Source of the DNA: Acidimicrobiales bacterium
Lineage (GTDB): Bacteria > Actinomycetota > Acidimicrobiia > Acidimicrobiales > RAAP-2
Assembly (NCBI GenBank): GCA_050743865.1
Contig: JBOGGE010000002.1
Location: 18,152-42,151, forward strand
Reading direction: 5' to 3'
DNA length: 24,000 bases
Shown: in pieces, positions 2,924-18,544 of the stretch
Layout: each line of letters begins with the position of its first letter
Numbering within the stretch: position 1 is the first letter of the stretch
Program-made: the position numbers and the translations under genes
The notes under the pieces: model-generated
Databases searched by the model: none
What the model was told of the DNA's origin: nothing
The model's input: only the letters and a program-made list of their open reading frames with translations

Positions 2924-3184
2924 TCACGGTCGGTCGTGGCCAAGCAGGCTCGTGACCCGGGCCACGAGATCCCCGCCGGCGTCCGACGGCCTGTCCTCGC
3001 CGTCGACGACAGCCGCCCACGCCCGCAGGGTGCTTCCTGCTTGCGCACGGGCGGACGAGATCACGTCTGCGAGCTCATCGGTGTCGTACAGGGCCTTCAA
3101 CGAGCGACGGAGCCGTTCGAGGTCCTTTCCGCCAGATTTGGCCCCGATCACGTACCCGATCACCAATGCCAGAGTGATGCTCAC
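2924..3184 (-). CDS. Small protein (86 aa) with a hydrophobic N-terminus, YtxH-like at the N-terminus; paralogue of the 12296-12529 product
   Basis: This is the C-terminal 87 codons of the track ORF 2924..3946. GTG at 3184 overlaps the TGA of the upstream padR::yceI gene (GTGA). GGAGG at 3192-3196 (minus-strand sense) lies 7 nt upstream. Translation: MSITLALVIGYVIGAKSGGKDLERLRRSLKALYDTDELADVISSARAQ... The rest of the 340-aa track ORF overlaps the better-supported PadR::YceI frame. Confidence 0.6.
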   Translation of the reverse strand: MSITLALVIGYVIGAKSGGKDLERLRRSLKALYDTDELADVISSARAQAGSTLRAWAAVVDGEDRPSDAGGDLVARVTSLLGHDRP

Positions 3185-4233: not shown

Positions 4234-4453
4234 GGCACCCTCCCGGGCTGCTTGCGACCCCGTCCGGCCCCGCAGCCGATCGACCAACGCTACCCCTACC
4301 CCACTTCCCTGCCTCCCCATTCCAATTCACCCACTTCGTTGAGCCCGGACCTCTTGACGGTGTGAAAGACACTCATTTACAAGGGCAGCCGCGGGGCGTA
4401 GGACGCAGGGAGCCGCACATTTCGGCGCGGCACGCGATCGGGAGGTGGTTGTC
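4234..4453. promoter_or_regulatory. Divergent control region between padR::yceI and the hydrogenase operon
   Basis: This is a 220-bp intergenic gap between divergent starts. It contains an AT-rich island at 4354-4382 (TTGACGgtgtgaaagacactcatttacaa) with a GTGT-N5-ACAC dyad. It also holds an almost G-free pyrimidine tract at 4291-4337 with the 8-bp direct repeat CCCACTTC at 4300 and 4330. The hhyS SD GGGAGG is at 4439-4444. I could not pin down -10 elements. Confidence 0.4.
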
Positions 4454-5509
4454 GTGACGGTAACCGAGGCGCCGCCGGACGAAGCCGTCGTCCACGTGCT
4501 GTGGATCAACGCCGGGCTCAGCTGCGACGGGGATTCCGTCGCCCTCACCGCGGCGACCCAGCCGAGCATCGAGGAGATCGCCATGGGCGCGCTCCCTGGG
4601 CTTCCCAAGATCGCCGTGCACTGGCCGTTGATCGACTTCGAGTGCGGCCCGGTCGGGGGAACCGACGACTTCATCGAATGGTTCTTCCGGGCCGACCGGG
4701 GCGAGCTCGACCCGTTCGTCTTGGTGGTGGAGGGCTCGATCCCCAACGAGGCCATCAAGCGTGAGGGGTACTGGTGCGGGTTCGGCAACAATCCGGACAC
4801 CGACCAGCCCATGACGACGAGCGAGTGGCTCGATCGCCTGGCGCCGAAGGCGCTGGTGGTCCTGGCCGCCGGGACTTGCGCCTGCTATGGCGGCATTCAC
4901 GCCATGGCGGGTAACCCGACGGGCGCCATGGGCGTCCCCGACTATCTGGGGTGGGGCTGGAGGTCAAAGGCGGGCATCCCGATCGTGTGCGTCCCGGGCT
5001 GCCCCACCCACCCGGACAACCTCTCCGAGACGATCCTGTACCTGCTCTACCAGGCCACGGGGCAAGCACCGATGATCCCCCTCGACGACTCCCTGCGACC
5101 GCAGTGGTTGTTCGGCAGCACCGTGCACGAGGGCTGCGACCGAGCCGGCTACTACGAGCAGGGCGACTTCGCCAGCGAGTACGGCTCGCCCAAGTGCATT
5201 GTGAAGCTGGGGTGCTGGGGCCCGGTGGTCAAGTGCAATGTCCCCAAGAGGGGCTGGATCAACGGGGTGGGCGGCTGCCCGAACGTCGGTGGCATCTGCA
5301 TCGGCTGCACCATGCCGGGTTTCCCCGACAAGTTCATGCCGTTCATGGACGAACCGCCGGGCGCCCGGGTCTCGACGGTGGCCAGCGGCCTGTACGGCGG
5401 GGCCATCCGGGGACTGCGCCGGATCACCGCCCACACGCTCGAAGACGAGCCGAAGTGGCGCCTGCCGGGCAAAGAGCTGGTGACCGGGTACAAGGGAACG
5501 TGGAGGTAG
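4454..5509 (+). CDS. hhyS: [NiFe]-hydrogenase small subunit, group 1h/5 (Hhy-type), cytosolic with no Tat signal
   Basis: FeS-ligand pattern: LSCDGDS, GTCACYGG, VPGCPTHPD, HEGCDR, KCIVKLGCWGPVVKC, GGCPNVGGICIGCTMPGFPD. There is no RRxF twin-arginine leader. GTG 4454 lies 9 nt after GGGAGG (4439-4444). The track start GTG 4445 abuts the SD, so 4454 is preferred; the start is uncertain by 9 nt. Confidence 0.93.
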   Translation: MTVTEAPPDEAVVHVLWINAGLSCDGDSVALTAATQPSIEEIAMGALPGLPKIAVHWPLIDFECGPVGGTDDFIEWFFRADRGELDPFVLVVEGSIPNEAIKREGYWCGFGNNPDTDQPMTTSEWLDRLAPKALVVLAAGTCACYGGIHAMAGNPTGAMGVPDYLGWGWRSKAGIPIVCVPGCPTHPDNLSETILYLLYQATGQAPMIPLDDSLRPQWLFGSTVHEGCDRAGYYEQGDFASEYGSPKCIVKLGCWGPVVKCNVPKRGWINGVGGCPNVGGICIGCTMPGFPDKFMPFMDEPPGARVSTVASGLYGGAIRGLRRITAHTLEDEPKWRLPGKELVTGYKGTWR

Positions 5510-5513
5510 GACG

Positions 5514-7298
5514 GTGGCCAAAGCACTTACCGACAACGACACCGGCCTGGTGGAGATGGCCTGGGACCCCATCACCCGGATCGTGGGCAGCTTGGGGATC
5601 TACACCAAGATCGACTTCGGGAGAGGCAAGGTCGTCGAGTGCCACAGCACTTCGTCGATCTTTCGCGGCTACAGCGTCTTCATGAAGGGGAAGGACCCCC
5701 GGGACGCCCACTTCATCACCAGCCGGATCTGCGGCATCTGCGGCGACAACCACGCCACCTGCTCGTGCTACGCCCAGAACATGGCGTATGGCGTGCACCC
5801 GCCGGCGCTCGGCGAACAGATCGTCAACCTCGGCGAAGCGGCCGAGTACATGTTCGACCACAACATCTTCCAGGAGAACCTGGTCGGAGTGGACTTCTGC
5901 GAGAAGATGGTCGCCGAGACCAACCCCGGCGTGCTGGAGCAGGCCAACCGCACCGAGGCCCCGCACGCTGCCGACCACGGGTACAGAACGGTCGGCGACA
6001 TCATGCGCTCGCTCAACCCGTTCTCCGGCGAGTTCTACCGCGAGGCCCTGCAGGTGAGCCGCTCCACCCGGGAGATGTTCTGCCTCATGGAGGGCCGCCA
6101 CGTGCACCCCTCCACGCTGTATCCCGGCGGCGTCGGCACGACGGCCACCATCCAGCTGTTCACCGACTACTACACCCGGCTCATGCGCTACGTGGAGTTC
6201 ATGAAGCGGGTCGTACCGATGCACGACGACCTGTTCGACTTCTTCTACCAGGCGATGCCCGGGTACGAGGAGGTCGGCCGGCGCCGGGTGCTCCTCGGTT
6301 GTTGGGGCGCCTTCCAGGACCCGTCGGTGTGCAACTTCAACTACCGGGACATGACCACCTGGGGACGGGCCATGGGTGTGACGCCCGGGGTGGTTGTCGA
6401 CGGGAACCTCGTCACCAACGATCTGGTCGAGATCAACCTGGGCATCCGCATCCTGCTCGGCCACTCGTTCTACGGCGACTGGGGAGACCAGGAGATGTTC
6501 GTCACCCGCGACCCGCTCGGCAATCCTGTCGACCGCCGCCATCCGTGGAACCAGCACACCAACCCCGCGCCCCAGAAGCGAGACTTCGACGGCAACTACA
6601 GCTGGGTGATGGCTCCCCGCTGGTCTGACGGGAGCGATGATCTCGCCCTCGACACCGGCGGTGGTCCCCTGGCCCGCCTCTGGTCGACCGCGCTGTCCGG
6701 CCTGGTGAGCACCGACCACGTCAAGGCCACCGGCGACAGCGTGGTCATCAACCTGCCCAAGACGGCACTCAAGCCCGAAGTCAGCCTCGAATGGAAGATC
6801 CCGCGGTGGTCCAACACCATCGAGCGTGACCGGGCCCGTACCTACTTCCAGGCCTACGCGGCGGCGTCGGCTCTGGACTTCATCGAGAAGGCGTTGGCCG
6901 ACGTGCGGGCCGGCAGGACGAAGACCTGGGAGCCCTTCGAAGTTCCCGACGAGGCGATCGGCTGCGGGTTCACCGAGGCGGTCCGCGGCGTCCTGTCACA
7001 CCACATGGTGATAAAGGGCGGCAAGATCGCCAACTATCACCCCTACCCGCCGACGCCGTGGAACGCCAGCCCCCGCGACAGCAACGGCACGCCCGGCCCG
7101 TATGAGGATGCGGTCATCGACTCGCCCATCTTCGAGGAGAACGACCAGGAGCACTTCAAGGGCATCGACATCATGCGGTCGGTGCGGAGCTTCGATCCTT
7201 GCCTGCCGTGCGGCGTGCACATGTACCTCGGCAAGGGAAAGGTCCTGAAGAAGCTCCACTCGCCCACGCAGGTGGCGACTCCCGATCTCGCCTCCTGA
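5514..7298 (+). CDS. hhyL: [NiFe]-hydrogenase large subunit, group 1h/5 (Hhy-type)
   Basis: The N-terminal metal-ligand motif is TSRICGICGDNHATCS and the C-terminal motif is SFDPCLPCGVH. GTG 5514 is preceded by GGAGG at 5502-5506. A 25-residue tail after CGVH (MYLGKGKVLKKLHSPTQVATPDLAS, nt 7221-7295) matches the extension removed by the maturation endopeptidase. Confidence 0.95.
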   Translation: MAKALTDNDTGLVEMAWDPITRIVGSLGIYTKIDFGRGKVVECHSTSSIFRGYSVFMKGKDPRDAHFITSRICGICGDNHATCSCYAQNMAYGVHPPALGEQIVNLGEAAEYMFDHNIFQENLVGVDFCEKMVAETNPGVLEQANRTEAPHAADHGYRTVGDIMRSLNPFSGEFYREALQVSRSTREMFCLMEGRHVHPSTLYPGGVGTTATIQLFTDYYTRLMRYVEFMKRVVPMHDDLFDFFYQAMPGYEEVGRRRVLLGCWGAFQDPSVCNFNYRDMTTWGRAMGVTPGVVVDGNLVTNDLVEINLGIRILLGHSFYGDWGDQEMFVTRDPLGNPVDRRHPWNQHTNPAPQKRDFDGNYSWVMAPRWSDGSDDLALDTGGGPLARLWSTALSGLVSTDHVKATGDSVVINLPKTALKPEVSLEWKIPRWSNTIERDRARTYFQAYAAASALDFIEKALADVRAGRTKTWEPFEVPDEAIGCGFTEAVRGVLSHHMVIKGGKIANYHPYPPTPWNASPRDSNGTPGPYEDAVIDSPIFEENDQEHFKGIDIMRSVRSFDPCLPCGVHMYLGKGKVLKKLHSPTQVATPDLAS

Positions 7299-7313: not shown

Positions 7314-7877
7314 ATGCCCGCACCGCAGAACCTCCGAGCCACCGGTGACCGGATCGAGCAGTTGCTGGACGAGCTGCAGAGGGCGGCCAACCCGTCTTCG
7401 TTCCGCCTGGTCGAGGAGCTCTTGAAGCTGGTCACCGAGCTCTACGGTGCCGGGCTGGCGCGGATGATGTCGATGGTCACCGAGCACGCCCCCGATCTGG
7501 CCGAGGTGTGCGCGAAGGACGAGCTGGTGGCCAGCCTGCTCGTCGTGCATGGGCTGCACCCGGACCCAGTGGCCCGAAGGGTGGAGGGCGCCCTGGCCTC
7601 GGTTCGCCCGTTGCTCGCCGCACACGCCGGTGACGTGGAGCTCGTGGAGGTCGACGCCGATGCCGGCATCGTCCGTCTCCGGCTCCTCGGGAGCTGCGAC
7701 GGGTGCCCGTCGTCGGCCATCACCCTCCGGGGGGCTGTCGAGCGGTCGATCGCCGAAGCGGCACCTGAGATCGTCAGCGTCGAGGTTGACCAGCCATCCG
7801 GGGTGGCGTCGGTTCCCGTCGCCGTCGGCACCAAGCCGACGTACGCCGAGTGCCCGTCGGGAACGGCGAGCCGGTGA
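7314..7877 (+). CDS. hhyE: NifU C-terminal-domain (Nfu-like) FeS protein associated with group 1h hydrogenase
   Basis: The C-terminal half VRPLLAAHAGDVELVEVDADAGIVRLRLLGSCDGCPSSAITLRGAVERSI is a classic Nfu/NifU-C domain with a CxxC pair. It sits immediately after hhyL, the position of the putative FeS protein HhyE in mycobacterial Hhy loci. The symbol is assigned from memory of that literature. Confidence 0.75.
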   Translation: MPAPQNLRATGDRIEQLLDELQRAANPSSFRLVEELLKLVTELYGAGLARMMSMVTEHAPDLAEVCAKDELVASLLVVHGLHPDPVARRVEGALASVRPLLAAHAGDVELVEVDADAGIVRLRLLGSCDGCPSSAITLRGAVERSIAEAAPEIVSVEVDQPSGVASVPVAVGTKPTYAECPSGTASR

Positions 7878-8497
7878 GCGACCCGCTGGCCGTGCTCCAG
7901 CGCATCCGGCTGGCTCGCCCGAGCGAGGTGGTGCGAGCAGGGGAGCGTTGCCAGCTGTGCGCCGAGGAGATCCCCGACGTCCACGGCCATCTGGTCGACC
8001 TGCAGGCGCGCTCCCTGCTCTGCGCCTGCCGGGGCTGCTACCTGCTCTTCACCGCCGAGGGTGCCGGTGGCCCCCACTACCGGGCCGTTCCCGATCGGTA
8101 CCTCGCCTTTCCCGGCTTCCAGCTGTCCCCGGCGCAGTGGGACTCCCTCCAGATCCCGGTCAGCATCGCCTTCTTCTTCGTCAACTCCGCTCTCGGCCGG
8201 GTGGCGGCTTTCTACCCCGGTCCCGCCGGGGCCACCGAGTCCGAGCTCTCCCTCGACACCTGGGATGAGGTGGTATCGGCCAATCCCACGCTGGCCACGC
8301 TCGAACCCGACGTCGAGGCGTTCCTGGTCCAGGCTGACCCGGACCACGGCGCCCCGGAGTGCTTCCTGGTGCCCATCGACGCCTGCTACGAGCTGGTGGG
8401 GCGCCTCCGGAAGTCCTGGCGAGGGTTCGACGGCGGGCGAGAGGCCCACGACCAGTTGGACGCCTTCTTCGCCGGCGTGCGGAGCCGGGTCCGATGA
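7874..8497 (+). CDS. Conserved hydrogenase-cluster protein of unknown function with a Cys-rich motif
   Basis: GTG 7874 overlaps the upstream TGA (GTGA). ATG 7850 is an alternative start in the same frame. The five-Cys motif is CQLC-x19-CACRGC (ERCQLCAEEIPDVHGHLVDLQARSLLCACRGCYLLF). Coding bias is good. I recall proteins in this position being labelled DUF5947 / hhaA-like, but that is unverified. Confidence 0.8.
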   Translation: MSDPLAVLQRIRLARPSEVVRAGERCQLCAEEIPDVHGHLVDLQARSLLCACRGCYLLFTAEGAGGPHYRAVPDRYLAFPGFQLSPAQWDSLQIPVSIAFFFVNSALGRVAAFYPGPAGATESELSLDTWDEVVSANPTLATLEPDVEAFLVQADPDHGAPECFLVPIDACYELVGRLRKSWRGFDGGREAHDQLDAFFAGVRSRVR

Positions 8498-9132
8498 CCA
8501 CGCTCGGTTTCGAGGTCGTGGACGCTCGACCGGAACCGCACGCCGCGGTGCCCACCATCATGTTGCGATTGCGGATCACCGAGACCGGTGGTGGGGTGCA
8601 CGCGCTGGCCCTCCGCTGCCAGATCCGCATCGAGCCTCAGCGGCGACGTTACGACCCCGAAGAGAGAGGCCGGCTCTACGAGCTCTTCGGGGAGACCCCG
8701 CAGTGGGGCGACTCCCTGCACCCCTTCTTGTGGACTCATGTGTCGACGACGCTGCCGGGCTTCTCCGGTTCGACCGACGTGGAGATCCCGGTCGAGTGCA
8801 CCTACGACTTCGACGTTGCGGGAGCCAAGTACCTTCACGCCCTGTCCGGGGGCGAGATCCCGCTCCTCCTGCTCTTTTCGGGCACCGTGTTCGTCCAGGG
8901 CGAATCGGGCTTTGCCGCCGAGCCCGTCCCGTGGGACCAAGAGGCCTCCTACCGGATGCCGGTCTCGGTGTGGCGAGGCGTGATGGATCTGTACTTCCCC
9001 AACAGCGGCTGGGTCCGGATCGGCCGCGATACCCTCGACCGGCTCGGACGGTTCAGGGCATCGCGGGCCCTTCCCACCTGGGACCAGGCATTCGAGCAGC
9101 TGCTCAAGGAAGCCGGAGACGGGGCATGGTGA
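8494..9132 (+). CDS. Conserved hydrogenase-cluster protein of unknown function
   Basis: ATG 8494 overlaps the upstream stop (ATGA). Translation: MTTLGFEVVDARPEPHAAVPTIMLRLRITETGGGVHALALRCQIRIEPQRRRYDPEERGRLYELFG... I recognise no catalytic motif. I recall a DUF6084 / hhaB-like annotation for this position, unverified. Confidence 0.8.
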   Translation: MTTLGFEVVDARPEPHAAVPTIMLRLRITETGGGVHALALRCQIRIEPQRRRYDPEERGRLYELFGETPQWGDSLHPFLWTHVSTTLPGFSGSTDVEIPVECTYDFDVAGAKYLHALSGGEIPLLLLFSGTVFVQGESGFAAEPVPWDQEASYRMPVSVWRGVMDLYFPNSGWVRIGRDTLDRLGRFRASRALPTWDQAFEQLLKEAGDGAW

Positions 9133-10532
9133 GGGTCGAGCTCGCCGATCGTTTCGCCGCCGCCGGCGCCGTGGCCGAGACCGTGCTCTACGAGGGGTAC
9201 ATGCTGTACCCCTACCGGGCGTCCTCGAGTAAGAACCAGTTGCGCTGGCAGTTCGGGGTGCTGGTTCCCCGTGCCTTCAGCGAGGCCGACGGCTCCGAAC
9301 GCTGGTCGATGCGCACCGAGTGCCTCCTCGATCCCGGACCGGCACCGGTCCTGGCCGTCCGCATCCGTTGCCTTCAGGCCCAGCATCGGGGGATCGAGGC
9401 CGCCGCTGCCGCCTCCGACAACGGGTTCGTGCCGGTCGAGGCGATCGAGGTCGACGGGCGCCACCATGTCGCCTGGGACGAAGCGGTCGATCAGGTCGTC
9501 GACCTTCCCCTGCTGGCATTGCACAGCCTCGAGATCGCTGACCACAGCCACCCCTTCGGGTTCGCCGGTTCGCGGGAGACCGAGCTGATCCGGACGAGCG
9601 TGGGGCAGGTGGCCGGGCGTATCGTCCGCCGGCGGCTGGCGGTGGACGGGCGGGTGCGCGTGACGGTCGCTCGCCCGGACGCCGCAAGCCGCTTCGTGAA
9701 GGTGGCCGTCACCGTGGAGAACGCCAGCCCGTTCCTGGACGCCGGTGCCGGGCGCCGGGACGCGCTCGCCCGTTCGCTGATCGCCTCGCACACCATGGTG
9801 GCCGTGGAGGGCGGGGTGTTCGTGTCGCTGTTCGACCCCCCCGACGGTGCCCGACCGGCGGCGGCGGCCTGTCACAACGACGGCGCCTTCCCGGTGCTGG
9901 TCGGAGAGGACGACGTGGTCCTCTCGTCGCCCATCATCCTCTACGACCACCCTTCGGTCGCCCCTGAGAGCCCGGGCAACCTCTACGACGCCACCGAGAT
10001 CGACGAGATCCTGGCGTTGCGGGTGCTGGCGCTGACCGACGAAGAGAAAGCCGAGGCGCGCGGCACCGACGCCCGCGCCGCCGCCATCATCGACCGCTGC
10101 GACGACATGCCCCCCGAGGTGTGGAGCCGGCTCCACGGCGCAGTGCGCTCCCTGCGGTCGGCGGCGGAGCCGGGAGCCGCCGGCAGCGGGGTGGACGATC
10201 GTGAGGACCCCGGACCGGTTCCCTGGTGGGATCCGGTGGCTGACGCCTCCGTCGACCCGTGGGGCGACCGGGTCAGGGTCGGCGACGTCGAGATCGGGAA
10301 GGGCACGAGGGTGCTGCTCCGGCCGTCGCGGCGCTCGGACGCCCAGGACCTCTTCTTGGCGGGTCGTGCCGCCACCGTGGCCGGCGTCTTCACCGACGTC
10401 GACGGGAGCCAGCAGGTGGCGGTGACGGTCGACGACGACCCGGCGACGGCGGAGCTGATATGGCAGGGGCGCTACCTGTTCTTCCACCCCGACGAGGTGG
10501 AGCCGCTCCCCGGGGAGGACGGCCCCCGATGA
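9126..10532 (+). CDS. Conserved hydrogenase-cluster protein of unknown function (468 aa)
   Basis: ATG 9126 overlaps the upstream gene by 7 nt (ATGGTGA). Only the last 469 codons of the 823-aa track ORF are taken. Translation starts MVRVELADRFAAAGAVAETVLYEGYMLYPYRASSSKNQLRWQFGVLVP. There is no P-loop and no Cys cluster. It shares an IRCLQAQHR-type motif with the preceding protein. Confidence 0.8.
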   Translation: MVRVELADRFAAAGAVAETVLYEGYMLYPYRASSSKNQLRWQFGVLVPRAFSEADGSERWSMRTECLLDPGPAPVLAVRIRCLQAQHRGIEAAAAASDNGFVPVEAIEVDGRHHVAWDEAVDQVVDLPLLALHSLEIADHSHPFGFAGSRETELIRTSVGQVAGRIVRRRLAVDGRVRVTVARPDAASRFVKVAVTVENASPFLDAGAGRRDALARSLIASHTMVAVEGGVFVSLFDPPDGARPAAAACHNDGAFPVLVGEDDVVLSSPIILYDHPSVAPESPGNLYDATEIDEILALRVLALTDEEKAEARGTDARAAAIIDRCDDMPPEVWSRLHGAVRSLRSAAEPGAAGSGVDDREDPGPVPWWDPVADASVDPWGDRVRVGDVEIGKGTRVLLRPSRRSDAQDLFLAGRAATVAGVFTDVDGSQQVAVTVDDDPATAELIWQGRYLFFHPDEVEPLPGEDGPR

Positions 10533-11029
10533 GGCCCCGAGTTCTCGTCGCCGGCATCGGGAACATCTTCTTGAGCGACGACGGCTTCGGCGTCGAAGTC
10601 GTCAACCGCCTGAGCGAAGAGCCCCTTCCGCCAGGGGTCCGGGTTACTGACGTCGGGATCCGCGGCCTCCACCTGGCCTACGAGCTGCTCGACGGCTACG
10701 ACGCGGTGATCCTGGTCGACGCCGTGCCGATGGGCGAGGCACCGGGAACGGTGGCGGTCATCGAGCCCGACGACCTGATGGCGACGCCCGGGGACGAGGC
10801 CCCGGTCGTCGACGCCCACAGCATGAGCCCCGAGGCGGTGCTGGGCACCCTGACCCGATTGGGCGGCTCGGTCGAACGGCTTCGGGTGGTCGGTTGCCAG
10901 CCCGCCGACCTCGACGAGGGCATCGGCCTGTCACCGGCGGTCGCCGACGCCGTCGACGGCGCGGTGGCGTTGTGCCGGCAGCTCGTTGCCGAGATCACGG
11001 AACCCGCTGGAAAGGAGACAACGAGATGA
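10529..11029 (+). CDS. Hydrogenase maturation endopeptidase (HyaD/HybD/HupD family)
   Basis: ATG 10529 is an ATGA overlap. Family motifs are present: VLVAGIGNIFLSDDGFGVEVV, AVILVDAV, VVDAHSMSP. Confidence 0.9.
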   Translation: MRPRVLVAGIGNIFLSDDGFGVEVVNRLSEEPLPPGVRVTDVGIRGLHLAYELLDGYDAVILVDAVPMGEAPGTVAVIEPDDLMATPGDEAPVVDAHSMSPEAVLGTLTRLGGSVERLRVVGCQPADLDEGIGLSPAVADAVDGAVALCRQLVAEITEPAGKETTR

Positions 11030-11130
11030 TCATTCGTCTCGCCAAATCGGTGCTCGTCGCCCTGGTCGTCGGAATGGTGCTCAAGTCGCTGCCCGACATC
11101 GCCCGGTACCTCAAGATCAGGGAGATGTGA
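11026..11130 (+). CDS. 34-aa hydrophobic peptide (single predicted TM helix)
   Basis: ATG 11026 overlaps the protease stop (ATGA) and is preceded by AAAGGAGA at 11011-11018. Translation: MIIRLAKSVLVALVVGMVLKSLPDIARYLKIREM. Its stop overlaps the candidate GTG start of the next gene. It is short, so the coding call rests on the SD, the coupling and the hydrophobic core. Confidence 0.55.
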   Translation: MIIRLAKSVLVALVVGMVLKSLPDIARYLKIREM

Positions 11131-11651
11131 CCTGGGTGGCTCATTACCGCATCGACCCCACACGTTCGTACGTATGGATCGACGCCCGGTCCAGCGTGCA
11201 CCCCATCCATTCCACCACCAAGGGGCTGGAGGGCTACCTCGATCTCGGCCTGGGGCCGGACGGTGCCGTCGATCTGGCGGTCATGCCGACCGGAAAGCTC
11301 TCGCTGCAGGTCAGTCGCCTCTCGTCGGGTAACCGGCTGGAGGATCGTGAGCTGCAACGACGCATCGACTCGAAGCGGTTCCCCGCCATCGAAGGGGTGA
11401 TCATCGGGATGGAGCCGATCGGCGGTGACGGGAGCTACCGGGTGAGCGGTGACATCACCTTTCGGGGAACGTCTCACCGGTACGAGGACCAGATGACCGT
11501 CAACCCGGTCGACGACAGCACGATCAAGCTCGCCGGCCAGTCGCGTTTCGACATCCGCGATTTCGGGATGGAGCCGCCCCGCATCTTGATGCTGAAGGTC
11601 GACCCGGAGGTGGCCGTGCGAGTGGAGGTGCTCGCGGTGAAGGAAGGATAG
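11127..11651 (+). CDS. YceI-like protein without signal peptide; paralogue of the C-terminal domain of the PadR::YceI regulator
   Basis: Translation: YRIDPTRSYVWIDARSSVHP...LSLQVSRLSSGNRLEDRELQRRIDSKRFPAIEG...ITFRGTSHRYEDQM...RFDIRDFGMEPPRILMLKVDPEVAVRVEV. The start is either GTG 11127 (GTGA overlap) or GTG 11136. There is no N-terminal hydrophobic leader. Confidence 0.85.
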   Translation: MTWVAHYRIDPTRSYVWIDARSSVHPIHSTTKGLEGYLDLGLGPDGAVDLAVMPTGKLSLQVSRLSSGNRLEDRELQRRIDSKRFPAIEGVIIGMEPIGGDGSYRVSGDITFRGTSHRYEDQMTVNPVDDSTIKLAGQSRFDIRDFGMEPPRILMLKVDPEVAVRVEVLAVKEG

Positions 11652-11657
11652 GACCCC

Positions 11658-11993
11658 GTGCACGAGCTCGGTTTGTGCAGTTCGATCGTGGACGCCGTCC
11701 AGCGGCGAGCCGGGGAACGCCCGGTGGCGCACGTGCGGGTGCGCGTCGGGCGCCTGCACCACGTCCACCCCGATGCGTTCGACCAGTCCTTCGCCGTGGC
11801 CGCCATGGGCACGGTGGCCGAGGACGCGGTGGCAGAGCTGGTCCAGCTCCCGGTGCGGGCAGCGTGCAGCCACTGCTCGACCACGTGGGAGTGCGAGGAG
11901 CTGCCCCTGGCCTGCCCCACCTGCGGGTCCGTGGACATTGACCTGCTCGGTGGGGACGAACTGCTGCTCGAGTCCATCAAGTACCGCGGCTGA
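11658..11993 (+). CDS. hypA: Hydrogenase nickel-incorporation protein HypA
   Basis: The N-terminal MHE nickel-binding motif (MHELGLCSSIV) is present. The zinc site is CSHC...CPTC. Start is GTG 11658. Confidence 0.9.
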   Translation: MHELGLCSSIVDAVQRRAGERPVAHVRVRVGRLHHVHPDAFDQSFAVAAMGTVAEDAVAELVQLPVRAACSHCSTTWECEELPLACPTCGSVDIDLLGGDELLLESIKYRG

Positions 11994-12006: not shown

Positions 12007-12294
12007 ATGTGCCTCGGCATACCGGGCCAGTTGGTGGCGTTCGGCTCGCACGAGCATCTGGCGCGAGTCGACGTCTCGGGGGTGGCTCGGACAATCAACA
12101 TCGGGTTGCTCGACGACGAGAGGCTCCAGCTCGGCGACTGGGTTCTCATCCATGTCGGCTTCGCCATGTCGAAGATCGACGAGGAGGAGGCGGCGCTGGC
12201 CTTGGCCTCGCTCAAGCTCATGGGCCAGGCCTACGGAGCCGAGCTCGACGCGTTCTGGTCGTCCAGGATCACCAGTGACAGCACGGGAGGTTGA
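12007..12294 (+). CDS. hypC: Hydrogenase assembly chaperone HypC/HupF family
   Basis: Signature N-terminus MCLGIPGQLV with Cys2, followed by GDWVLIHVGFAMSKIDEEEA. GAGGAG lies upstream at 11994-11999. Confidence 0.9.
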   Translation: MCLGIPGQLVAFGSHEHLARVDVSGVARTINIGLLDDERLQLGDWVLIHVGFAMSKIDEEEAALALASLKLMGQAYGAELDAFWSSRITSDSTGG

Positions 12295-12295
12295 C

Positions 12296-12529
12296 ATGGG
12301 AACCATCGTCGGAGCCATGATCGGGTACGTGTTCGGCACGCAAGCCGGACCTCAGGGGTGGGACGACCTGCGCCGTGCCTGGGGGGTGATCAGCTCCTCC
12401 GAGGAGGTGAGGAACCTGATCGACCTCAGCTTCTCGATGGCCCATGGCCTCGTGGGGCGTGGGGGCGAGCTGCTCGCCGGGGCGGCCGGAACCTCGGAGT
12501 CCCGTTCCGCACTGCGACCGGTGGCGTAG
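12296..12529 (+). CDS. Small protein (77 aa) with a hydrophobic N-terminus; paralogue of the 2924-3184 product
   Basis: ATG 12296 is preceded by GGGAGG at 12285-12290. Translation: MGTIVGAMIGYVFGTQAGPQGWDDLRRAWGVISSSEEVRNLIDLSF... It shares the IGYV-G-x3-G-x6-LRR pattern with MSITLALVIGYVIGAKSGGKDLERLRRS at 2924-3184. Confidence 0.6.
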   Translation: MGTIVGAMIGYVFGTQAGPQGWDDLRRAWGVISSSEEVRNLIDLSFSMAHGLVGRGGELLAGAAGTSESRSALRPVA

Positions 12530-12536
12530 GCCGGCC

Positions 12537-13676
12537 ATGCGATTCGTGGACGAGTACCGCGACCCGGCGGCGGCGCAGGTGCAGGTGAGCCGGATCACCG
12601 ACCTGGCCGCCGGGGAAGAGTTCAAGTTCATGGAGGTGTGCGGCGGCCACACCCACACCATCTACCGGCACGGGATCGAGCATCTGGTGCCGGCCAACGT
12701 GGAGCTCGTGCACGGGCCGGGATGCCCGGTGTGCGTGATCCCGATGGGCAGGATCGACGACGCCATCTCGGTGGCAAAGGAACCGGGCGTGATCTTCACG
12801 TCCTTCGGCGACATGATGCGGGTGCCGGGAAGCCACGGCAACCTGCTCCACGCCAAGGCCGAGGGAGCTGACGTCCGCTTCGTGTACTCGCCGCTCGACG
12901 CGCTGCGGATCGCCGTGGAGAACCCCGAGCACCAGGTGGTCTTCTTCGCCGTCGGCTTCGAGACCACCGCCCCTTCCACCGCCATCGTGCTCGCACAGGC
13001 GCGAGCGCGCCGGATCACCAACTTCAGCGTCTTCTGCAACCACGTCATGATCGTCCCCCCGATCAAGGCGATCCTCGAGTCACCGGACCTCCGGCTGGAC
13101 GGGTTCCTCGGACCGGGGCACGTCTCGACGGTGATCGGCCAGCGGCCCTACCGCTTCGTCCCCGACCAGTACGGCAAGCCGCTGGTGACCGCCGGGTTCG
13201 AACCGCTCGACATACTCCAAGCCATCTCGATGCTCCTCGCCCAGATCAGGGAGGGACGGTGCGAGGTGGAGAACCAGTACTCGAGGGTGGTTCGTGAAGG
13301 GGGGAACCCGCGAGCCCTGGCCCTGCTGGGCGAGGTGTTCGAGCTGCGACCCCACTTCGAATGGCGCGGCCTCGGGTTCATCTCCCAGAGCGCGCTGAAA
13401 CTTCGACCGGAATTCGAGAGCTTCGACGCCGAGCTCCGCTACCAGCTGCCGGGGGTACGCGTGGCGGACCCGAAGGCGTGCCAGTGCGGCGAGGTCCTCA
13501 AGGGCGTCATCAAGCCCTGGGAGTGCAAGGTGTTCGGCACCGCCTGCACGCCGGAGACTCCCATCGGCACGTGCATGGTCTCGTCCGAGGGGGCGTGCGC
13601 CGCCTACTACAACTTCGGCCGAATGCACCGCGAGGCGGCAGTCGCCTTCGGCAGGAGGAGCCCGGTCAACGCATGA
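12537..13676 (+). CDS. hypD: Hydrogenase maturation FeS protein HypD
   Basis: Motifs: MRFVDEYRD, MEVCGGHTH, HGPGCPVCV, FFAVGFETTAP, and C-terminal cysteines (CQCG...C...C). Confidence 0.95.
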   Translation: MRFVDEYRDPAAAQVQVSRITDLAAGEEFKFMEVCGGHTHTIYRHGIEHLVPANVELVHGPGCPVCVIPMGRIDDAISVAKEPGVIFTSFGDMMRVPGSHGNLLHAKAEGADVRFVYSPLDALRIAVENPEHQVVFFAVGFETTAPSTAIVLAQARARRITNFSVFCNHVMIVPPIKAILESPDLRLDGFLGPGHVSTVIGQRPYRFVPDQYGKPLVTAGFEPLDILQAISMLLAQIREGRCEVENQYSRVVREGGNPRALALLGEVFELRPHFEWRGLGFISQSALKLRPEFESFDAELRYQLPGVRVADPKACQCGEVLKGVIKPWECKVFGTACTPETPIGTCMVSSEGACAAYYNFGRMHREAAVAFGRRSPVNA

Positions 13677-16051
13677 CGGCGTCGATCACCGACGGTGTGC
13701 CGGTCCGGCACCGGCTCCGGGTGACCGGAGTGGTCCAGGGAGTCGGCTTTCGTCCCTTCGTCCACTCGCTGGCCGGCCGGCTCGAGCTCGCCGGCCGCGT
13801 CGGCAACGACAGCGAAGGGGTGCTCGTCGAGGTCGAGGGTCCCGCCGGGGCCGTCGAACGCTTCGAGTCGCTGCTGGTCGACGAGGCACCACCCCTGGCC
13901 CGGATCGAAGCCGTCGAGTGCAGCGCGGTCGACCCGCTCTCCGAGCCCGGCTTCCGGATCGAGACCAGCCGGTCCACCGGAGCGGTCCGCACCTTCGTGT
14001 CGCCCGACGTCGCCGTGTGCGGCGAATGTCTGGCCGAGCTCTTTGCACCCGCCGACCGCCGGTACCGCTACCCGTTCATCAACTGCACCAACTGCGGACC
14101 GCGCTTTACCATCACCGTCAGGCTCCCCTACGACCGGCCCAACACGACCATGGCCGGCTTCCCGCTGTGCCCGGCGTGCGCCGCCGAGTACCAGGACCCG
14201 AGCGACCGCCGGTTCCACGCCCAGCCGGTCGCTTGCCAGATCTGCGGCCCCCACCTGTCCTTCGACGGGCCGACCGGGACGGTCGAAGGCACCGACGCCT
14301 CCATCGCCGCCACCCAGCACCTGCTGGGCCGGGGAGGCATCGTGGCGGTGAAGGGGCTCGGCGGCTACCACCTGGCCTGCGACGCCACCTCGGACGCCGG
14401 CGTCGACGAGCTCCGCCGCCGCAAGGCACGGACCGACAAGCCGTTCGCCGTGATGGTGGCCGACCTGGCCGCCGCCCGTCGCCTGGCCCACCTCGATCCC
14501 GCCGAGGAGATGGTCCTGGCCGGCGTCGAGCGCCCGATCGTGCTGCTGCGCCGGCGCGCCGAGAGCTGCCTGTCGCCCCTGGTGGCGCCGGGTAGTCCCT
14601 GGGTCGGGGTCCTCCTGGCCTACACCCCCGTCCACCACCTCCTCTTCCACGAGGTCCCGGGGGCCGGCTCCCCGGTCCCAGAGGTGCTGGTGATGACCAG
14701 CGGCAACCTGAGCGAGGAGCCGATCTGCTACGACGACGACGACGCCCGCCGGCGGCTCGGCAGCATCGCCGAGGGCTGGCTGGTCGGCAACCGGCCCATC
14801 CACGTGCCCTGCGACGACTCGGTGGTCCGGGTCGAGTCCGGGGTGGAGCTGCCCATCCGCCGCTCGAGGGGGTACGCACCTCTGCCGGTGCGTCTCCCCT
14901 TCCCCGCCGCCCCGCTGCTCGCCGTCGGAGGGGAGCTCAAGAACACCTTCTGCCTGGCTTCCGGCCGCGACGCCTGGATGAGCCAGCACCTCGGCGACAT
15001 GGGCAGCGTGGAGACCCTGACCGCGTTCGAGCGCTCCTGGCGGCAGTTCGCAGAGATCTACTGCATCGACCCGGTAGCCGCCGTCGCCGACACCCACCCT
15101 GGCTACCAGACCCGCCGGTGGGCCGAATCGGGCTCGGGCCGGCCGGCGGTGACCGTGCAGCACCACCACGCCCACATCGCCTCGGTGATGGCCGAGCATC
15201 AGATCCCCGAGGGAGAGCAGGTGATCGGGTACGCCTTCGACGGCACCGGCTACGGGACCGACGGGGCGATCTGGGGCGGGGAGGTGCTCGTCGCCGGCTA
15301 CGACCGGTTCGAACGGGCGACCCACCTCCGGTACGTCCCGTTGCCCGGCGGCGACGCCGCCGTCCGCAAGCCCTACCGGGCGGCTCTGTCCCACCTGCGG
15401 GCGGCCGGGATTGCCTGGAGCCGGGATCTGGCGCCGGTGGCCGCCGCCCCGCCCGGCGAGCTGGCGGCCCTCGAGCACCAACTCGAGCACAACGTGCGCT
15501 GCGTCCCCACCTCCAGCATGGGGCGGCTCTTCGACACCGTCAGTTCGCTCCTCGGTCTTCGCCAGGTCGTCTCCTACGAGGCCCAGGCGGCGATCGATCT
15601 CGAGACTGCGGCCGCCGCCCACACCGGTCCCGCCCCCGCCTACCGGTTCGGGATCGAGGGACGCGAGCTGGATCCGGCCGCCATGCTGGTGAGCATCGTC
15701 GGCGACCTCCGCGCCGGGTGCCCGACCGGCGCCATTGCCGCCGGCTTCCACCGAGCGGTGGCCGGACTGGTCGGGGAGACGGCTGAACGGGAACGCCGGC
15801 GCACGGGGATCAATCGGGTGGCACTCAGCGGCGGGGTGTTCCAAAACACGCTGGTGGTGCGACTGGTACGCGCCGAGCTGGCCCAGCGGGGCCTCGCCGT
15901 CCTCACCCACCGGGTCGTTCCCCCCAACGACGGCGGTCTCGCTCTCGGGCAGGCAGCGGTGGCCGCCAGTTCGATACGGGCGGCGGCGGCGCTGCGAACA
16001 GAGGCGTCGGCGGTGGCACCGACGTCGACGTCGACGTCGAAGGAGGCATAG
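13673..16051 (+). CDS. hypF: Carbamoyltransferase HypF
   Basis: ATG 13673 is an ATGA overlap. The acylphosphatase domain is RVTGVVQGVGFRPFV. There are two zinc-finger pairs (CGECLAEL...YPFINCTNCGPRFT and CPACAAEYQDPSDRRFHAQPVACQICGP). YrdC-like (VAVKGLGGYHLACDA) and Kae1-like C-terminal domains are present. Confidence 0.95.
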   Translation: MTASITDGVPVRHRLRVTGVVQGVGFRPFVHSLAGRLELAGRVGNDSEGVLVEVEGPAGAVERFESLLVDEAPPLARIEAVECSAVDPLSEPGFRIETSRSTGAVRTFVSPDVAVCGECLAELFAPADRRYRYPFINCTNCGPRFTITVRLPYDRPNTTMAGFPLCPACAAEYQDPSDRRFHAQPVACQICGPHLSFDGPTGTVEGTDASIAATQHLLGRGGIVAVKGLGGYHLACDATSDAGVDELRRRKARTDKPFAVMVADLAAARRLAHLDPAEEMVLAGVERPIVLLRRRAESCLSPLVAPGSPWVGVLLAYTPVHHLLFHEVPGAGSPVPEVLVMTSGNLSEEPICYDDDDARRRLGSIAEGWLVGNRPIHVPCDDSVVRVESGVELPIRRSRGYAPLPVRLPFPAAPLLAVGGELKNTFCLASGRDAWMSQHLGDMGSVETLTAFERSWRQFAEIYCIDPVAAVADTHPGYQTRRWAESGSGRPAVTVQHHHAHIASVMAEHQIPEGEQVIGYAFDGTGYGTDGAIWGGEVLVAGYDRFERATHLRYVPLPGGDAAVRKPYRAALSHLRAAGIAWSRDLAPVAAAPPGELAALEHQLEHNVRCVPTSSMGRLFDTVSSLLGLRQVVSYEAQAAIDLETAAAAHTGPAPAYRFGIEGRELDPAAMLVSIVGDLRAGCPTGAIAAGFHRAVAGLVGETAERERRRTGINRVALSGGVFQNTLVVRLVRAELAQRGLAVLTHRVVPPNDGGLALGQAAVAASSIRAAAALRTEASAVAPTSTSTSKEA

Positions 16052-16779
16052 TGGCAACGATCGATCTCTCCCCGCCCGCCGGGGATGTCGCCCCGGCCGA
16101 GGACCTGGCAGTCACGGCCCTGGCGCTGGCCCGCCGGTTCGCCGCCGGCGCCACCATGTGGTGCGTGGCCCCCCGATGGCCGGCCCACGCCCGTCATCTG
16201 GCCGTCGAGTTCGTCCACCCGGTCATCATGGGGAAGCGGGCACTGCCCGCCATCCACCTCGACGGGCCCGACCCGGCCGACGGGCTGCGCCAGCTGGCCC
16301 GGGCGGGCGACGTTCTCGCCGCGGTCGGCATCGCCGACGATGCCCGTATCGCCGCTCTCATGCGCCGTTCCGAGGCCTGGGGCCTCACCCGGCTGTGGCT
16401 GGGAGCGGGCCCCCGGCCGCCGTCGGGGTTGGCCGAGCACGTCGTGTGGGCAGAGAGCGCGGACCCCACCGTCGCCGTCCGCTCGGGCGACGTCGTCATG
16501 CTCTACCACCTCCTCTGGGAGCTGACCCACGTGGTCTTCGAGCACCCCGGCCTCCTGGAGGAAGAGCCGTCCTGCACGGACGACGTGTGCACCACGTGCT
16601 CCGACGAGGGCCGGGTGGCAGAAGTGCGATCGGCCGACGGGGCCGGACGGGCCGAAGTGATAGCCGCAGGGAAGCTCGAGACGGTCGACGTCAGCCTCGT
16701 CGACCCGGTTCGGCCCGGAGACCTGCTGTTGGTCCACGCCGGCGTGGCCCTGACCTCGCTGGGCGACGGCGAGCCATGA
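16051..16779 (+). CDS. Fusion protein: degenerate SIS-like N-terminal domain + HypC/HupF-like C-terminal domain
   Basis: GTG 16051 shares one nt with the hypF TAG stop. AGGAGG lies at 16041-16046. The N-terminal half parallels the next gene's SIS fold (GATMWCVAPRW... vs GGRLFAFGNGGS...; GDVLAAVGIADDARIAALMRRSEAWGL vs GDIALGISTSGNSANLLRAFDESSRRGL) but has lost the GNGGS and STSGNS motifs. The C-terminal ~75 aa, CTDDVCTTCSDEGRVAEV...VDVSLVDPVRPGDLLLVHAGVALTSL, aligns with HypC (MCLGIPGQLV...GDWVLIHVGFAMSKI). Confidence 0.8.
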   Translation: MATIDLSPPAGDVAPAEDLAVTALALARRFAAGATMWCVAPRWPAHARHLAVEFVHPVIMGKRALPAIHLDGPDPADGLRQLARAGDVLAAVGIADDARIAALMRRSEAWGLTRLWLGAGPRPPSGLAEHVVWAESADPTVAVRSGDVVMLYHLLWELTHVVFEHPGLLEEEPSCTDDVCTTCSDEGRVAEVRSADGAGRAEVIAAGKLETVDVSLVDPVRPGDLLLVHAGVALTSLGDGEP

Positions 16780-17435
16780 CGGCCGAGCCAACCGGCTTCC
16801 TCTACCCGTTCATCGAGTCCGAGGAGCGGGACGCACCGGGCCTGGTCGCCGACCTCGCCCGATCGGCTCGGGCCAAGATGGACACCAGCCGAGCCCTCCG
16901 TGCGGCGACCATCGAGGCGTGCGCCGGCGTCGTGCACCGGGCGGGATCTGCCATGGCTGACCGGTTCCGGCAGGGAGGCAGGCTCTTCGCCTTCGGCAAC
17001 GGGGGGAGCGCAACCGACGCCGAGGGGATCGTCGATCTCTTCCTTCGCCCACCGGACGGGAGGCCGTTGCCGGCGATGTCCCTCGCCGAGGACCTTGCCG
17101 TGCTCACCGCCCTTGGCAACGACGTCGGCTTCGAGTTGGTCTTCTCGCGCCAGATCATCGCCCATGCCCGACCGGGTGACATCGCTCTCGGCATTTCCAC
17201 CAGCGGCAACTCGGCCAACCTGCTGCGGGCGTTCGACGAGTCGTCGCGGCGGGGCCTGCTGACGGCGGGGCTTGCCGGCTACGACGGGGGGTCGATGGCC
17301 TCGAGCCTCGCCGTCCACCACTGCCTGGTGGTCCGCTCCGACAGTGTGCACCGGATCCAAGAGGCCCAGAACGCCCTGGCGTTGCAGCTCTGGTCAGTCA
17401 TCCAGCACGACCTCGACGAAGGGGGCACGACATGA
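16776..17435 (+). CDS. SIS-domain protein (GmhA / phosphoheptose-isomerase-like)
   Basis: ATG 16776 is an ATGA overlap. Motifs: GGRLFAFGNGGSATDAEG, LGNDVGFELVFSRQ, GDIALGISTSGNSANLLRA, LAGYDGG. Confidence 0.85.
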   Translation: MTAEPTGFLYPFIESEERDAPGLVADLARSARAKMDTSRALRAATIEACAGVVHRAGSAMADRFRQGGRLFAFGNGGSATDAEGIVDLFLRPPDGRPLPAMSLAEDLAVLTALGNDVGFELVFSRQIIAHARPGDIALGISTSGNSANLLRAFDESSRRGLLTAGLAGYDGGSMASSLAVHHCLVVRSDSVHRIQEAQNALALQLWSVIQHDLDEGGTT

Positions 17436-18544
17436 CCGACACCGCCCGGAGGAACAGCCCGGCCGACGCCGCGGGAAAGGAGGCCGCGGTGTTGGACCGG
17501 ATCGAGGCATTCCGCCGGCGGCGGCCTCGCTTGACCGACGACGTCGTCACCCTGGCCCACGGAGCGGGCGGCAAGGCGTCGGCGGCCCTGCTCGACGCGA
17601 TCTTCCTTCCCGCATTCGCCGACGGTGCGCCGTCCGTGCAGACCGACGCAGCAGTGGTCACGCTCCCCGGGGGCGACCGGCTGGCCTTCAGCACCGACTC
17701 GTTCGTAGTGAAGCCGCTGCGCTTCCCGGGGGGATCAGCCGGTCACCTCGCCGTCCACGGCACCGTCAACGACCTGGCCATGATGGGCGCCCACCCACTG
17801 GCCCTCTCTGCCGCCTTCGTGCTGGAGGAAGGGTTGCCGATGAACGACCTGCGAGGGATCGTGGCCGACATGGCAGAGGCAGCGGCCGGGGCAGCGGTCT
17901 CCATCGTCACCGGTGACACCAAAGTGGTCGATCGGGGCGCCGCCGACGGGATGTACATCTCGACCGCCGGGGTGGGGATCGTCCCGGCGGGGCGGGAGCT
18001 GTCAGCGGCTCGGGTCGCCGCCGGCGACGTCGTCATCTCCTCGGGGATGATCGGGGACCACGGGATGGCGGTCATGCTGGCCCGGGGTGACCTGGCCCTC
18101 GACGCCGACATCACGTCCGATACGGCGCCGCTGCACGAGTTGATGGAGCGCCTCCTGGGGGCCGCCCCGTCCACCCGCTGGCTGCGCGACGCCACCCGGG
18201 GTGGGGTCGGGACGGTCTGCAACGAGCTGGCACGGGACAGCAACCTCACGGTCGTGCTGGACGAGGCGGCCCTCCCGGTCCGTCCGGCGGTGGCGGCGGC
18301 ATGCGAGTTGCTGGGCCTCGACCCGCTCTACGCCGCCAACGAGGGAAAGTTCGTGGCCGTGGTGGCGCCGGCAGAGGAGGGTGCGGCCCTCGCCGCGCTC
18401 CGACGCCATCCGTTGGGTGGCGACGCCGCCCGCATCGGCCGGATCGACGCCGAGCCGCCGGGCATCGTCGTGCTCGTCACCCCGATCGGTGGCACCCGGA
18501 TCGTCGACATGCTGGTCGGCGACCCGTTGCCGCGGATTTGCTGA
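17432..18544 (+). CDS. hypE: Hydrogenase maturation carbamoyl dehydratase HypE
   Basis: ATG 17432 is an ATGA overlap. It has the AIR-synthase-like fold (LAHGAGGKAS, HLAVHGTVNDLAMMGA). The protein ends in the diagnostic PRIC terminus. Confidence 0.95.
   Translation: MTDTARRNSPADAAGKEAAVLDRIEAFRRRRPRLTDDVVTLAHGAGGKASAALLDAIFLPAFADGAPSVQTDAAVVTLPGGDRLAFSTDSFVVKPLRFPGGSAGHLAVHGTVNDLAMMGAHPLALSAAFVLEEGLPMNDLRGIVADMAEAAAGAAVSIVTGDTKVVDRGAADGMYISTAGVGIVPAGRELSAARVAAGDVVISSGMIGDHGMAVMLARGDLALDADITSDTAPLHELMERLLGAAPSTRWLRDATRGGVGTVCNELARDSNLTVVLDEAALPVRPAVAAACELLGLDPLYAANEGKFVAVVAPAEEGAALAALRRHPLGGDAARIGRIDAEPPGIVVLVTPIGGTRIVDMLVGDPLPRIC

Follow-up and report, generated by a model that had tools for sequence, protein, structure and literature searches.

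The isomerase GmhA is a homotetramer with four equivalent active sites, and its structures from Burkholderia pseudomallei (2X3Y, 2XBL and 5LU5) and Escherichia coli (2I2W and 2I22) display the fold that is common to the two proteins considered here. These proteins are encoded next to each other, between hypF and hypE, in a 24,000-nucleotide stretch of DNA from an Acidimicrobiales bacterium (contig JBOGGE010000002.1; hereafter, the window), which contains an entire group 1h-type (Hhy) [NiFe]-hydrogenase locus. The first protein, P0001 (SISa-HypC'), joins a GmhA-type SIS domain to a HypC-like barrel, and the second, P0002 (SISb), is a GmhA-like SIS protein. In GmhA itself, four residues bind the catalytic zinc (H64, E68, Q175 and H183 as numbered in B. 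pseudomallei), and all of them are completely conserved in orthologues (PMC5705639). One monomer supplies H64, E68 and H183, and its neighbour contributes Q175 (PMC5387315). GmhA shares with SISb the GNGGS, GND and S-T-S-G-x-S motifs as well as D61 and Q175, and it shares with SISa the residues H64, E68 and H183. In place of four equivalent sites, the present system has two paralogues that divide the residue set between them, and neither alone has a complete site or reaches the gmhA equivalog cut-off. The pair also differs from GmhA in that one subunit carries a HypC-like domain, that the genes reside in hyp operons, and that the genome holds no heptose pathway.

Three other described systems resemble parts of this arrangement. 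HypC, HybG and HupF (Thermococcus kodakarensis 2Z1C and 3VYR; E. coli HypC) have in common with HypC' a five-stranded barrel, a conserved His, a Cys near the Cys2 position, and a gene located among hypF, hypD and hypE. DiaA, like SISa, has the GmhA fold with part of the catalytic set lost, and it has been recruited to a role in protein assembly; unlike the pair, it is a homotetramer that binds DnaA, with no partner paralogue, no complementary residues and no link to hydrogenases. HypX (HoxX, the aerobic CO-ligand synthase of Cupriavidus necator) is, like the pair, an accessory and non-universal component of the hyp clusters of aerobic H2 oxidisers, but its fold (formyltransferase plus enoyl-CoA hydratase) is unrelated and its reaction is known.

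A gene annotated as gmhA or phosphoheptose isomerase, often with an adjacent hypothetical gene, recurs in group 1h and 2a loci, and 'gmhA' has been seen to be co-expressed or co-induced with hydrogenase genes (PMC11879354, PMC5900883, PMC7735108, PMC12727194, PMC5445863). The gmhA-type gene of Mycobacterium smegmatis is MSMEG_2706. Our literature search found no functional study of the pair and no description of a split site, and in databases the two proteins go under 'gmhA' together with 'HypC family' or 'hypothetical'. Most biological soil uptake of atmospheric H2 is due to hydrogenases of groups 1h and 2a, which are also sought as oxygen-insensitive catalysts. Heterologous production of these enzymes is limited by incomplete knowledge of their maturases (PMC10657181).

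We propose, with a probability of about 0.62, that P0001 and P0002 are two subunits of one heteromeric [NiFe]-cofactor-assembly accessory factor, derived from GmhA and having a composite site. The proposal draws on the folds of the two proteins, their complementary residues, their obligatory adjacency, their natural fusions and their confinement to hyp clusters. In the window, the GTG start of P0001 overlaps the hypF stop (TAGTG) and P0002 has ATGA overlaps at both ends, with P0001 (16776-16779) and with hypE (17432-17435); both genes are translationally coupled to hypF and hypE. Among 80 related loci, which come from at least six actinobacterial groups (Acidimicrobiales, Mycobacterium, Mycolicibacterium, Pseudonocardia, Rhodococcus and Nocardioidaceae), the SISb gene lies directly 3' of the SISa-HypC' gene in every one, and hypE usually follows.

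The proposed factor would belong specifically to those hyp clusters that accompany O2-insensitive uptake hydrogenases of group 1h and related types. Both subunits would descend from a duplicated GmhA (sedoheptulose-7-phosphate isomerase), and the SISa-SISb interface would rebuild one complete metal-dependent phosphosugar site, with the mirror site dead. The subunit that supplies the His-Glu-His triad is covalently tied to a HypC-type barrel, and a potential Fe-binding carrier would in this way be brought close to the composite site; the barrel keeps the His of HypC and a Cys at the Cys2 position, the latter being internal and doubled to CxxC. The module would probably function in Fe(CN)2CO assembly, at a point between HypF/HypE and HypC/HypD, and the putative composite site may bind or turn over a phosphosugar. 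If true, a split composite-site enzyme tethered to an iron carrier offers concrete residues and ligands that can be tested.

Two GmhA-type folds and a HypC-type barrel

In the N-terminal ~170 residues of P0001 no SIS domain was detected with Pfam, pairwise BLASTP of P0001 against P0002 returned insignificant fragments only, and phmmer with P0001 alone found no match in the PDB. As pairwise searches are too insensitive for the homologies of P0001, profile methods were needed. A profile made from 37 sequences of the close SISa-HypC' family (alignment A4) matched the P0002 family profile over residues 14-167 with 92.5% probability (hhalign, E 4.8e-7), and a search of the PDB with the SISa family profile retrieved DiaA, the best match, and GmhA of B. 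pseudomallei, with E 0.003-0.007. An AlphaFold2 model of P0001 (predicted local distance difference test score 85.1, predicted template-modelling score 0.81) was compared with known structures by Foldseek. The best 28 matches are GmhA structures, headed by 5lu7 and 2x3y at E 8e-9, with target template-modelling scores of 0.68-0.70 over ~170 aligned columns at 21-24% identity. The profile comparisons, the model and the gene overlaps agree with the original prediction that two paralogous SIS folds lie back to back and are ATGA-coupled.

That prediction had also called the first SIS domain degenerate. This description holds for the sugar-phosphate loops, as hhalign places APRWP at the position of GNGGS and GIADDA at that of STSGNS, the same motifs that had been quoted. 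It does not hold for the triad, since H49, E53 and H153 are invariant in A4, nor for the rate of change, since identity across the same loci is 52-70% for P0001 and 54-71% for P0002. Being as conserved as its partner, P0001 is not a decaying relic. SISa has H46 at the position of GmhA D61, and at that of Q175 it has a Ser that is not conserved.

The second protein, P0002, matches SIS_2 (Pfam, E 1.7e-13) and solved GmhA structures (E 1e-27). It had been described as intact, which is correct for the sugar-phosphate loops; in a 25-sequence SISb family alignment (A3) these loops are conserved, D81 (the equivalent of GmhA D61) is invariant, and the GND and FSRQ motifs are kept as well. It is not correct for the zinc-binding and catalytic residues. 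At the positions of H64, E68 and H183, P0002 has G84, L88 and L203, and only the Gln of Q175 is kept, as Q195 (alignment to 5lu5). The protein also scores below the gmhA equivalog cut-offs, with 107.2 bits against 209.45 for TIGR00441 and 115.8 bits against 276 for NF010546.

These features bear on the possibility that P0002 is an ordinary GmhA for envelope glycero-manno-heptose that lies among hyp genes by chance. Genes of this kind are indeed annotated automatically as gmhA or phosphoheptose isomerase (PMC5445863, PMC5900883, PMC11879354), and the best NCBIfam matches of P0002 are GmhA models. With scores so far under the cut-offs, with all three of H64, E68 and H183 missing, and with coupling to hyp genes and synteny in all 80 loci, we find this explanation hardly credible. 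In addition, no other GmhA-like gene and no GmhB were found in the genome, which is 93% complete. As the catalytic residues are lost and GmhB is absent from this genome, a role for P0002 in heptose synthesis was rejected.

The original prediction had paired an active with an inactive SIS protein, and what is seen instead is that the losses are complementary. SISa keeps H49, E53 and H153 and has lost the loops and the Gln, while SISb keeps the loops, D81 and Q195 and has lost the triad. As aligned, SISa and SISb together hold exactly one full GmhA residue set, and their split appears to follow the known division of the GmhA site between subunits. The sugar-phosphate pocket probably lies on the chain that carries the Gln and not on the triad chain, as suggested by a docked Mycobacterium tuberculosis model (PMC7705670) and by helix geometry. 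Specifically, N55 of the GNGGS motif and E68 lie on one helix at a spacing of 13 residues, which we judge likely to be too distant for one shared substrate. GmhA exhibits half-of-sites reactivity, wherein ablation of one of the four sites has no cost in activity and ablation of three leaves ~40% (PMC5705639). This behaviour makes sub-functionalisation after duplication plausible and offers a simple route to the split. The pair would thereby exemplify how an oligomeric enzyme with shared sites can be divided into two complementary, half-dead paralogues.

The C-terminal domain of P0001 is HypC-like. Residues 190-237 match Pfam HupF_HypC (PF01455) at E 4e-8, with 33.7 bits against a cut-off of 28.5, and segment 172-242 aligns with the canonical HypC family at 97.2% probability (hhalign, E 4.3e-11). 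The fusion to a HypC/HupF-like barrel had been predicted, and the families named for the two proteins are those that Pfam returns: SIS_2 for P0002 and HupF_HypC for this domain. Against TIGR00074 the domain reaches 25.6 bits, below the cut-off of 48, and BLASTP of the segment against the window's own HypC gave no match. G187 aligns with the Gly of MCxxxPG, which places C183 within one residue of the HypC Cys2 (hhalign), and H229, within LLVHAG, falls on the conserved His in the VLIHVG stretch of the HypC encoded in the window. C180, C183 and H229 are invariant in A4, and C175 is nearly so.

HypC' differs from HypC in having no free N-terminal Cys. The equivalent residue, C183, is internal, ~180 residues into the protein (182 from the start), and is preceded by C180, which completes a CxxC, and by a third Cys further upstream, C175; the prediction of an internal Cys within CTDDVCTTC is correct. 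The AlphaFold2 model displays a short helix at the CxxC and then five strands, with no C-terminal helix, another point of difference from HypC. On these alignments, HypC' has the two functional side chains of HypC but not its defining free N-terminal Cys. A canonical HypC is present in the window, as had been pointed out, and in 66 of the 80 related loci; HypC' is therefore an extra copy, and is always additional to canonical HypC. Homologues of P0001 form more than 4500 clusters at 90% identity (a lower bound), mostly of ~240 amino acids and carrying PF01455, and the family comprises 1014 representatives at 50% identity. Within it, a minority sub-group (P0166, P0170, P0176, P0201 and P0221) has lost the His-Glu-His triad (e.g. 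R/T/R in its place) and has kept the CxxC and the HypC His.

Linkage and distribution of the pair

Fusions between the three modules have arisen in several lineages. For the genome counts below, 401 genomes were drawn evenly from the phylum, and a close HhyL relative was defined by E < 1e-100. Single open reading frames (ORFs) of the form SISa-SISb occur on a plasmid of Thermus thermophilus and in three genomes (G048, G113 and G145) of the sample, a single SISa-HypC'-SISb ORF occurs in G262, and two of the family representatives (P0124 and P0150) are fusions of P0001 with P0002. In another sampled genome (G021) the three modules are three separate genes, and G113 has a stand-alone CxxC-HypC' beside canonical hypC. 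Fusion and fission of this kind are a classic signature of the parts of one complex, and would identify the modules as such. Because the pair is always adjacent and its parts are fused in some lineages, we read it as one heteromeric maturation module; formation of a SISa/SISb heteromer is likely, given the adjacency in 80 of 80 loci, the translational coupling and the natural fusions.

The triple-fusion ORF of G262 (contig C18, ~7560-8966) lies beside hypF, hypC, hypD and hypE, in a locus whose hydrogenase is only distantly related to HhyL. On the T. thermophilus plasmid (NC_017273; locus L086, 9998-10258), a gene for a 'Uxx-star family glutaredoxin-like (seleno)protein' lies immediately after the SISa-SISb fusion and before hypF. 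A glutaredoxin also adjoins gmhA in acidobacterial group 1h loci (PMC5900883).

The SISa family was found in 62 of the 401 genomes. Of the 61 genomes in which a close HhyL relative is encoded, 52 have it, against none of the ~100 genomes that have distant [NiFe] hydrogenases only. In the inspected genomes that appeared to have the pair without a hydrogenase of this type, the pair still resides inside a hyp cluster. The notion that the pair occurs in genomes lacking a hydrogenase was accordingly rejected, as the inspected cases are hyp clusters, with structural genes decayed in G243. This complete, Mycobacterium-like genome carries a decayed Hhy locus (C1:2934000-2972000) in which hhyL is absent and two short fragments are all that is left of hhyS; matches to hypF, the SIS pair, hypE, hypC and hypD still extend along these genes. 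Most sampled genomes that have such an enzyme (52 of 61) thus have the module as well. It is encoded in the hypF-hypE core, and its family runs to thousands of sequences.

Several observations weigh against a heteromeric factor with a composite site. GmhA sites each involve three chains (PMC11056994). The split is less clean outside the clade, as SISb proteins of other lineages have a His where GmhA has H183 and an Asp at both position 64 and position 68. Among 83 diverse representatives of the P0001 family, ~10-15 have a degenerate triad with the CxxC...H intact, although some of these are mistranslated metagenome reads. Finally, four group 1h loci (G054, G069, G282 and G295) have the plain order hypF-hypC-hypD-hypE and no pair, which means that the module is not universally required.

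The representatives that lost the triad and kept CxxC...H are also what one might expect of a non-catalytic scaffold similar to E. coli DiaA. In such an arrangement, a SISa/SISb hetero-oligomer would hold HypC' carriers, and perhaps HypE, HypF or HypD, in stoichiometry, and the His and Glu residues would be structural or would be ligands of a structural metal. The GmhA fold has turned into a protein-binding scaffold in DiaA and HobA (PMC4697000), which serve as precedents, DiaA is the best PDB sequence match of the SISa profile, and SISb lacks all three catalytic and zinc-binding residues. A pure scaffold, however, should not preserve complementary site residues, and here one complete GmhA site is invariant in split form, with H, E and H on SISa and the N of GNGGS, S-T-S, GND, D81 and Q195 on SISb. 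In DiaA, moreover, the Glu is missing (PMC4697000). On balance we regard a scaffold as unlikely, although it deserves to be taken seriously, and we continue to favour a heteromeric factor with a composite site.

HypX and the CO ligand

The original prediction stated that hypX is absent, and this is correct for the 93%-complete genome, in which no HypX was found and tblastn with C. necator HypX finds nothing. The three formyltransferase-domain matches of the genome are PurU-like, PurN-like and Fmt-like genes. In the sample, a HypX-like gene occurs in 9 of 401 genomes, and, of the 61 that have a close HhyL relative, 55 lack HypX.

The prediction had further raised the question of whether the pair anticorrelates with hypX. 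At the level of gene clusters this is the case in our small sample. None of the 80 pair-bearing loci has hypX within ~8 kb; the two genomes with hypX inside the hyp/hhy cluster (G054 and G282) lack the pair in those clusters; and C. necator plasmid pHG1, a carrier of hypX, has no SISa homologue. At the level of genomes it is not strictly so, as four genomes hold both the pair and a HypX-like gene, and a strict genome-level anticorrelation was rejected for this reason. In those four genomes, the HypX-like gene stands alone, with no hydrogenase or hyp gene within flanks of ~3-9 kb. Two Hhy genomes (G069 and G295) have neither the pair nor HypX. The distribution is consistent with HypX and the pair being alternative systems, few independent HypX clusters being available for the comparison.

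Stand-alone HypX-like genes were examined in five genomes (G109, G154, G189, G293 and G083). They encode proteins with 34-48% identity to C. necator HypX over nearly the full length, and no hydrogenase or hyp gene lies within the 3-10 kb flank on each side of any of the five.

The original prediction had put the pair forward as a candidate for an alternative aerobic route in the handling of active-site ligands or cofactor, and on this view it could be an aerobic, HypX-independent source of CO or of some other ligand of the active site. A phosphosugar would be opened or activated at the composite metal site, and from it the iron of the adjacent CxxC-HypC' carrier would take up a one-carbon fragment as Fe-CO. 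Consistent with such a source are the lack of HypX in this genome and in most genomes with a close HhyL relative, the apparent mutual exclusivity of the two systems at the cluster level, and the isolation of HypX-like genes from hydrogenase and hyp surroundings where both systems coexist. General chemistry lends some further support. CO is a product of enediolate dioxygenases, Ni-acireductone dioxygenase among them, and aldoses can undergo decarbonylation by transition metals.

Other considerations make this source of CO quite improbable. The HypX-bearing hyp clusters number only two and both belong to one genus-level group, and related genomes are non-independent samples. There are also Hhy genomes with neither system and the four sampled genomes with both, and E. 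coli and other bacteria form the CO ligand without HypX or the pair. A more specific version, which we hold to be more doubtful still, is that the composite site might open a ketose phosphate (e.g. sedoheptulose 7-phosphate) to a metal-bound enediol or aldehyde, with C1 delivered as CO to the CxxC-HypC' iron. This would constitute a sugar-derived, HypX-independent and air-compatible route to Fe-CO in groups 1h and 2a. The pair would in that event be a specific candidate for the source of the CO ligand in aerobes that lack HypX.

Layout of the locus

The hydrogenase locus occupies the + strand of a high-GC actinobacterial contig (Table 1), and the closest relatives of the window are metagenome-assembled genomes of Acidimicrobiales. 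No second hydrogenase was found in the 93%-complete genome.

Table 1. Genes of the hydrogenase locus and features of the SISa-HypC'/SISb pair, in window coordinates.
Feature	Position	Strand	Basis or remark
hhyS	4445-5509	+	
hhyL	5514-7298	+	
NifU-like gene	7314-7877	+	
DUF5947 gene	7850-8497	+	
DUF6084 gene	8494-9132	+	
467-amino-acid ORF	9129-10532	+	No Pfam match
HycI-type protease gene	End at 11029	+	
YceI-like gene	10986-11651	+	
hypA	11658-11993	+	
Canonical hypC	12007-12294	+	Pfam HupF_HypC, E 5.6e-24, matched from residue 1
hypD	12444-13676	+	
hypF (carbamoyltransferase)	13673-16051	+	ORF and translation; tblastn synteny in 72/80 related loci
Shine-Dalgarno sequence AAGGAGG	16040-16046	+	4 nucleotides 5' of the GTG start at 16051; read in sequence
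P0001, SISa-HypC' fusion, GTG start, 242 amino acids	16051-16779	+	ORF, Pfam, hhalign, AlphaFold2, Foldseek
SISa domain, residues 15-169	16093-16557	+	GmhA-type alpha/beta fold; hhalign, AlphaFold2 secondary structure, Foldseek
Codons of H49 (16195-16197) and E53 (16207-16209)	16195-16209	+	Align with GmhA zinc ligands H64 and E68; hidden Markov model alignment to 2xbl
Codon of H153	16507-16509	+	Equivalent of GmhA H183 (zinc ligand and catalytic base); from chained alignments
Cys cluster C175-x4-C180-x2-C183 (CTDDVCTTC)	16573-16599	+	Linker just 5' of the barrel
HypC' five-stranded barrel, residues 186-238	16606-16764	+	Pfam, hhalign, AlphaFold2 strands
Codon of H229	16735-16737	+	Equivalent of E. 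coli HypC His51
P0002, SISb, GmhA-like SIS protein, 219 amino acids	16776-17435	+	
GNGGS loop, residues 74-78	16995-17009	+	Invariant in A3
STSGNS phosphate-binding loop, residues 141-146	17196-17213	+	S141, T142, S143, G144 and S146 invariant in A3
Codon of Q195	17358-17360	+	Equivalent of GmhA Q175; alignment to 5lu5; invariant in A3
hypE	17432-18544	+	AIRS and AIRS_C domains; 3' of the pair in 76/80 related loci

The hyp set of this locus consists of hypA, hypC, hypD, hypF and hypE together with the protease gene. Using C. necator HypB as the query, tblastn matches nothing in the whole 93%-complete genome, and hypB is carried by 5 of the 80 related loci. Inside the hyp operon, between the protease gene and hypA, lies a YceI-like gene that recurs in 19 of the 80 related loci. 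Another YceI domain, in fusion with a PadR regulator (3181-4320, - strand), is encoded divergently upstream of hhyS. The DUF6084 gene and the 467-amino-acid ORF (8494-10532, + strand) lie between the DUF5947 gene and the maturation protease gene, and many related loci have a gap of similar size at this position that is unmatched by the queries used.

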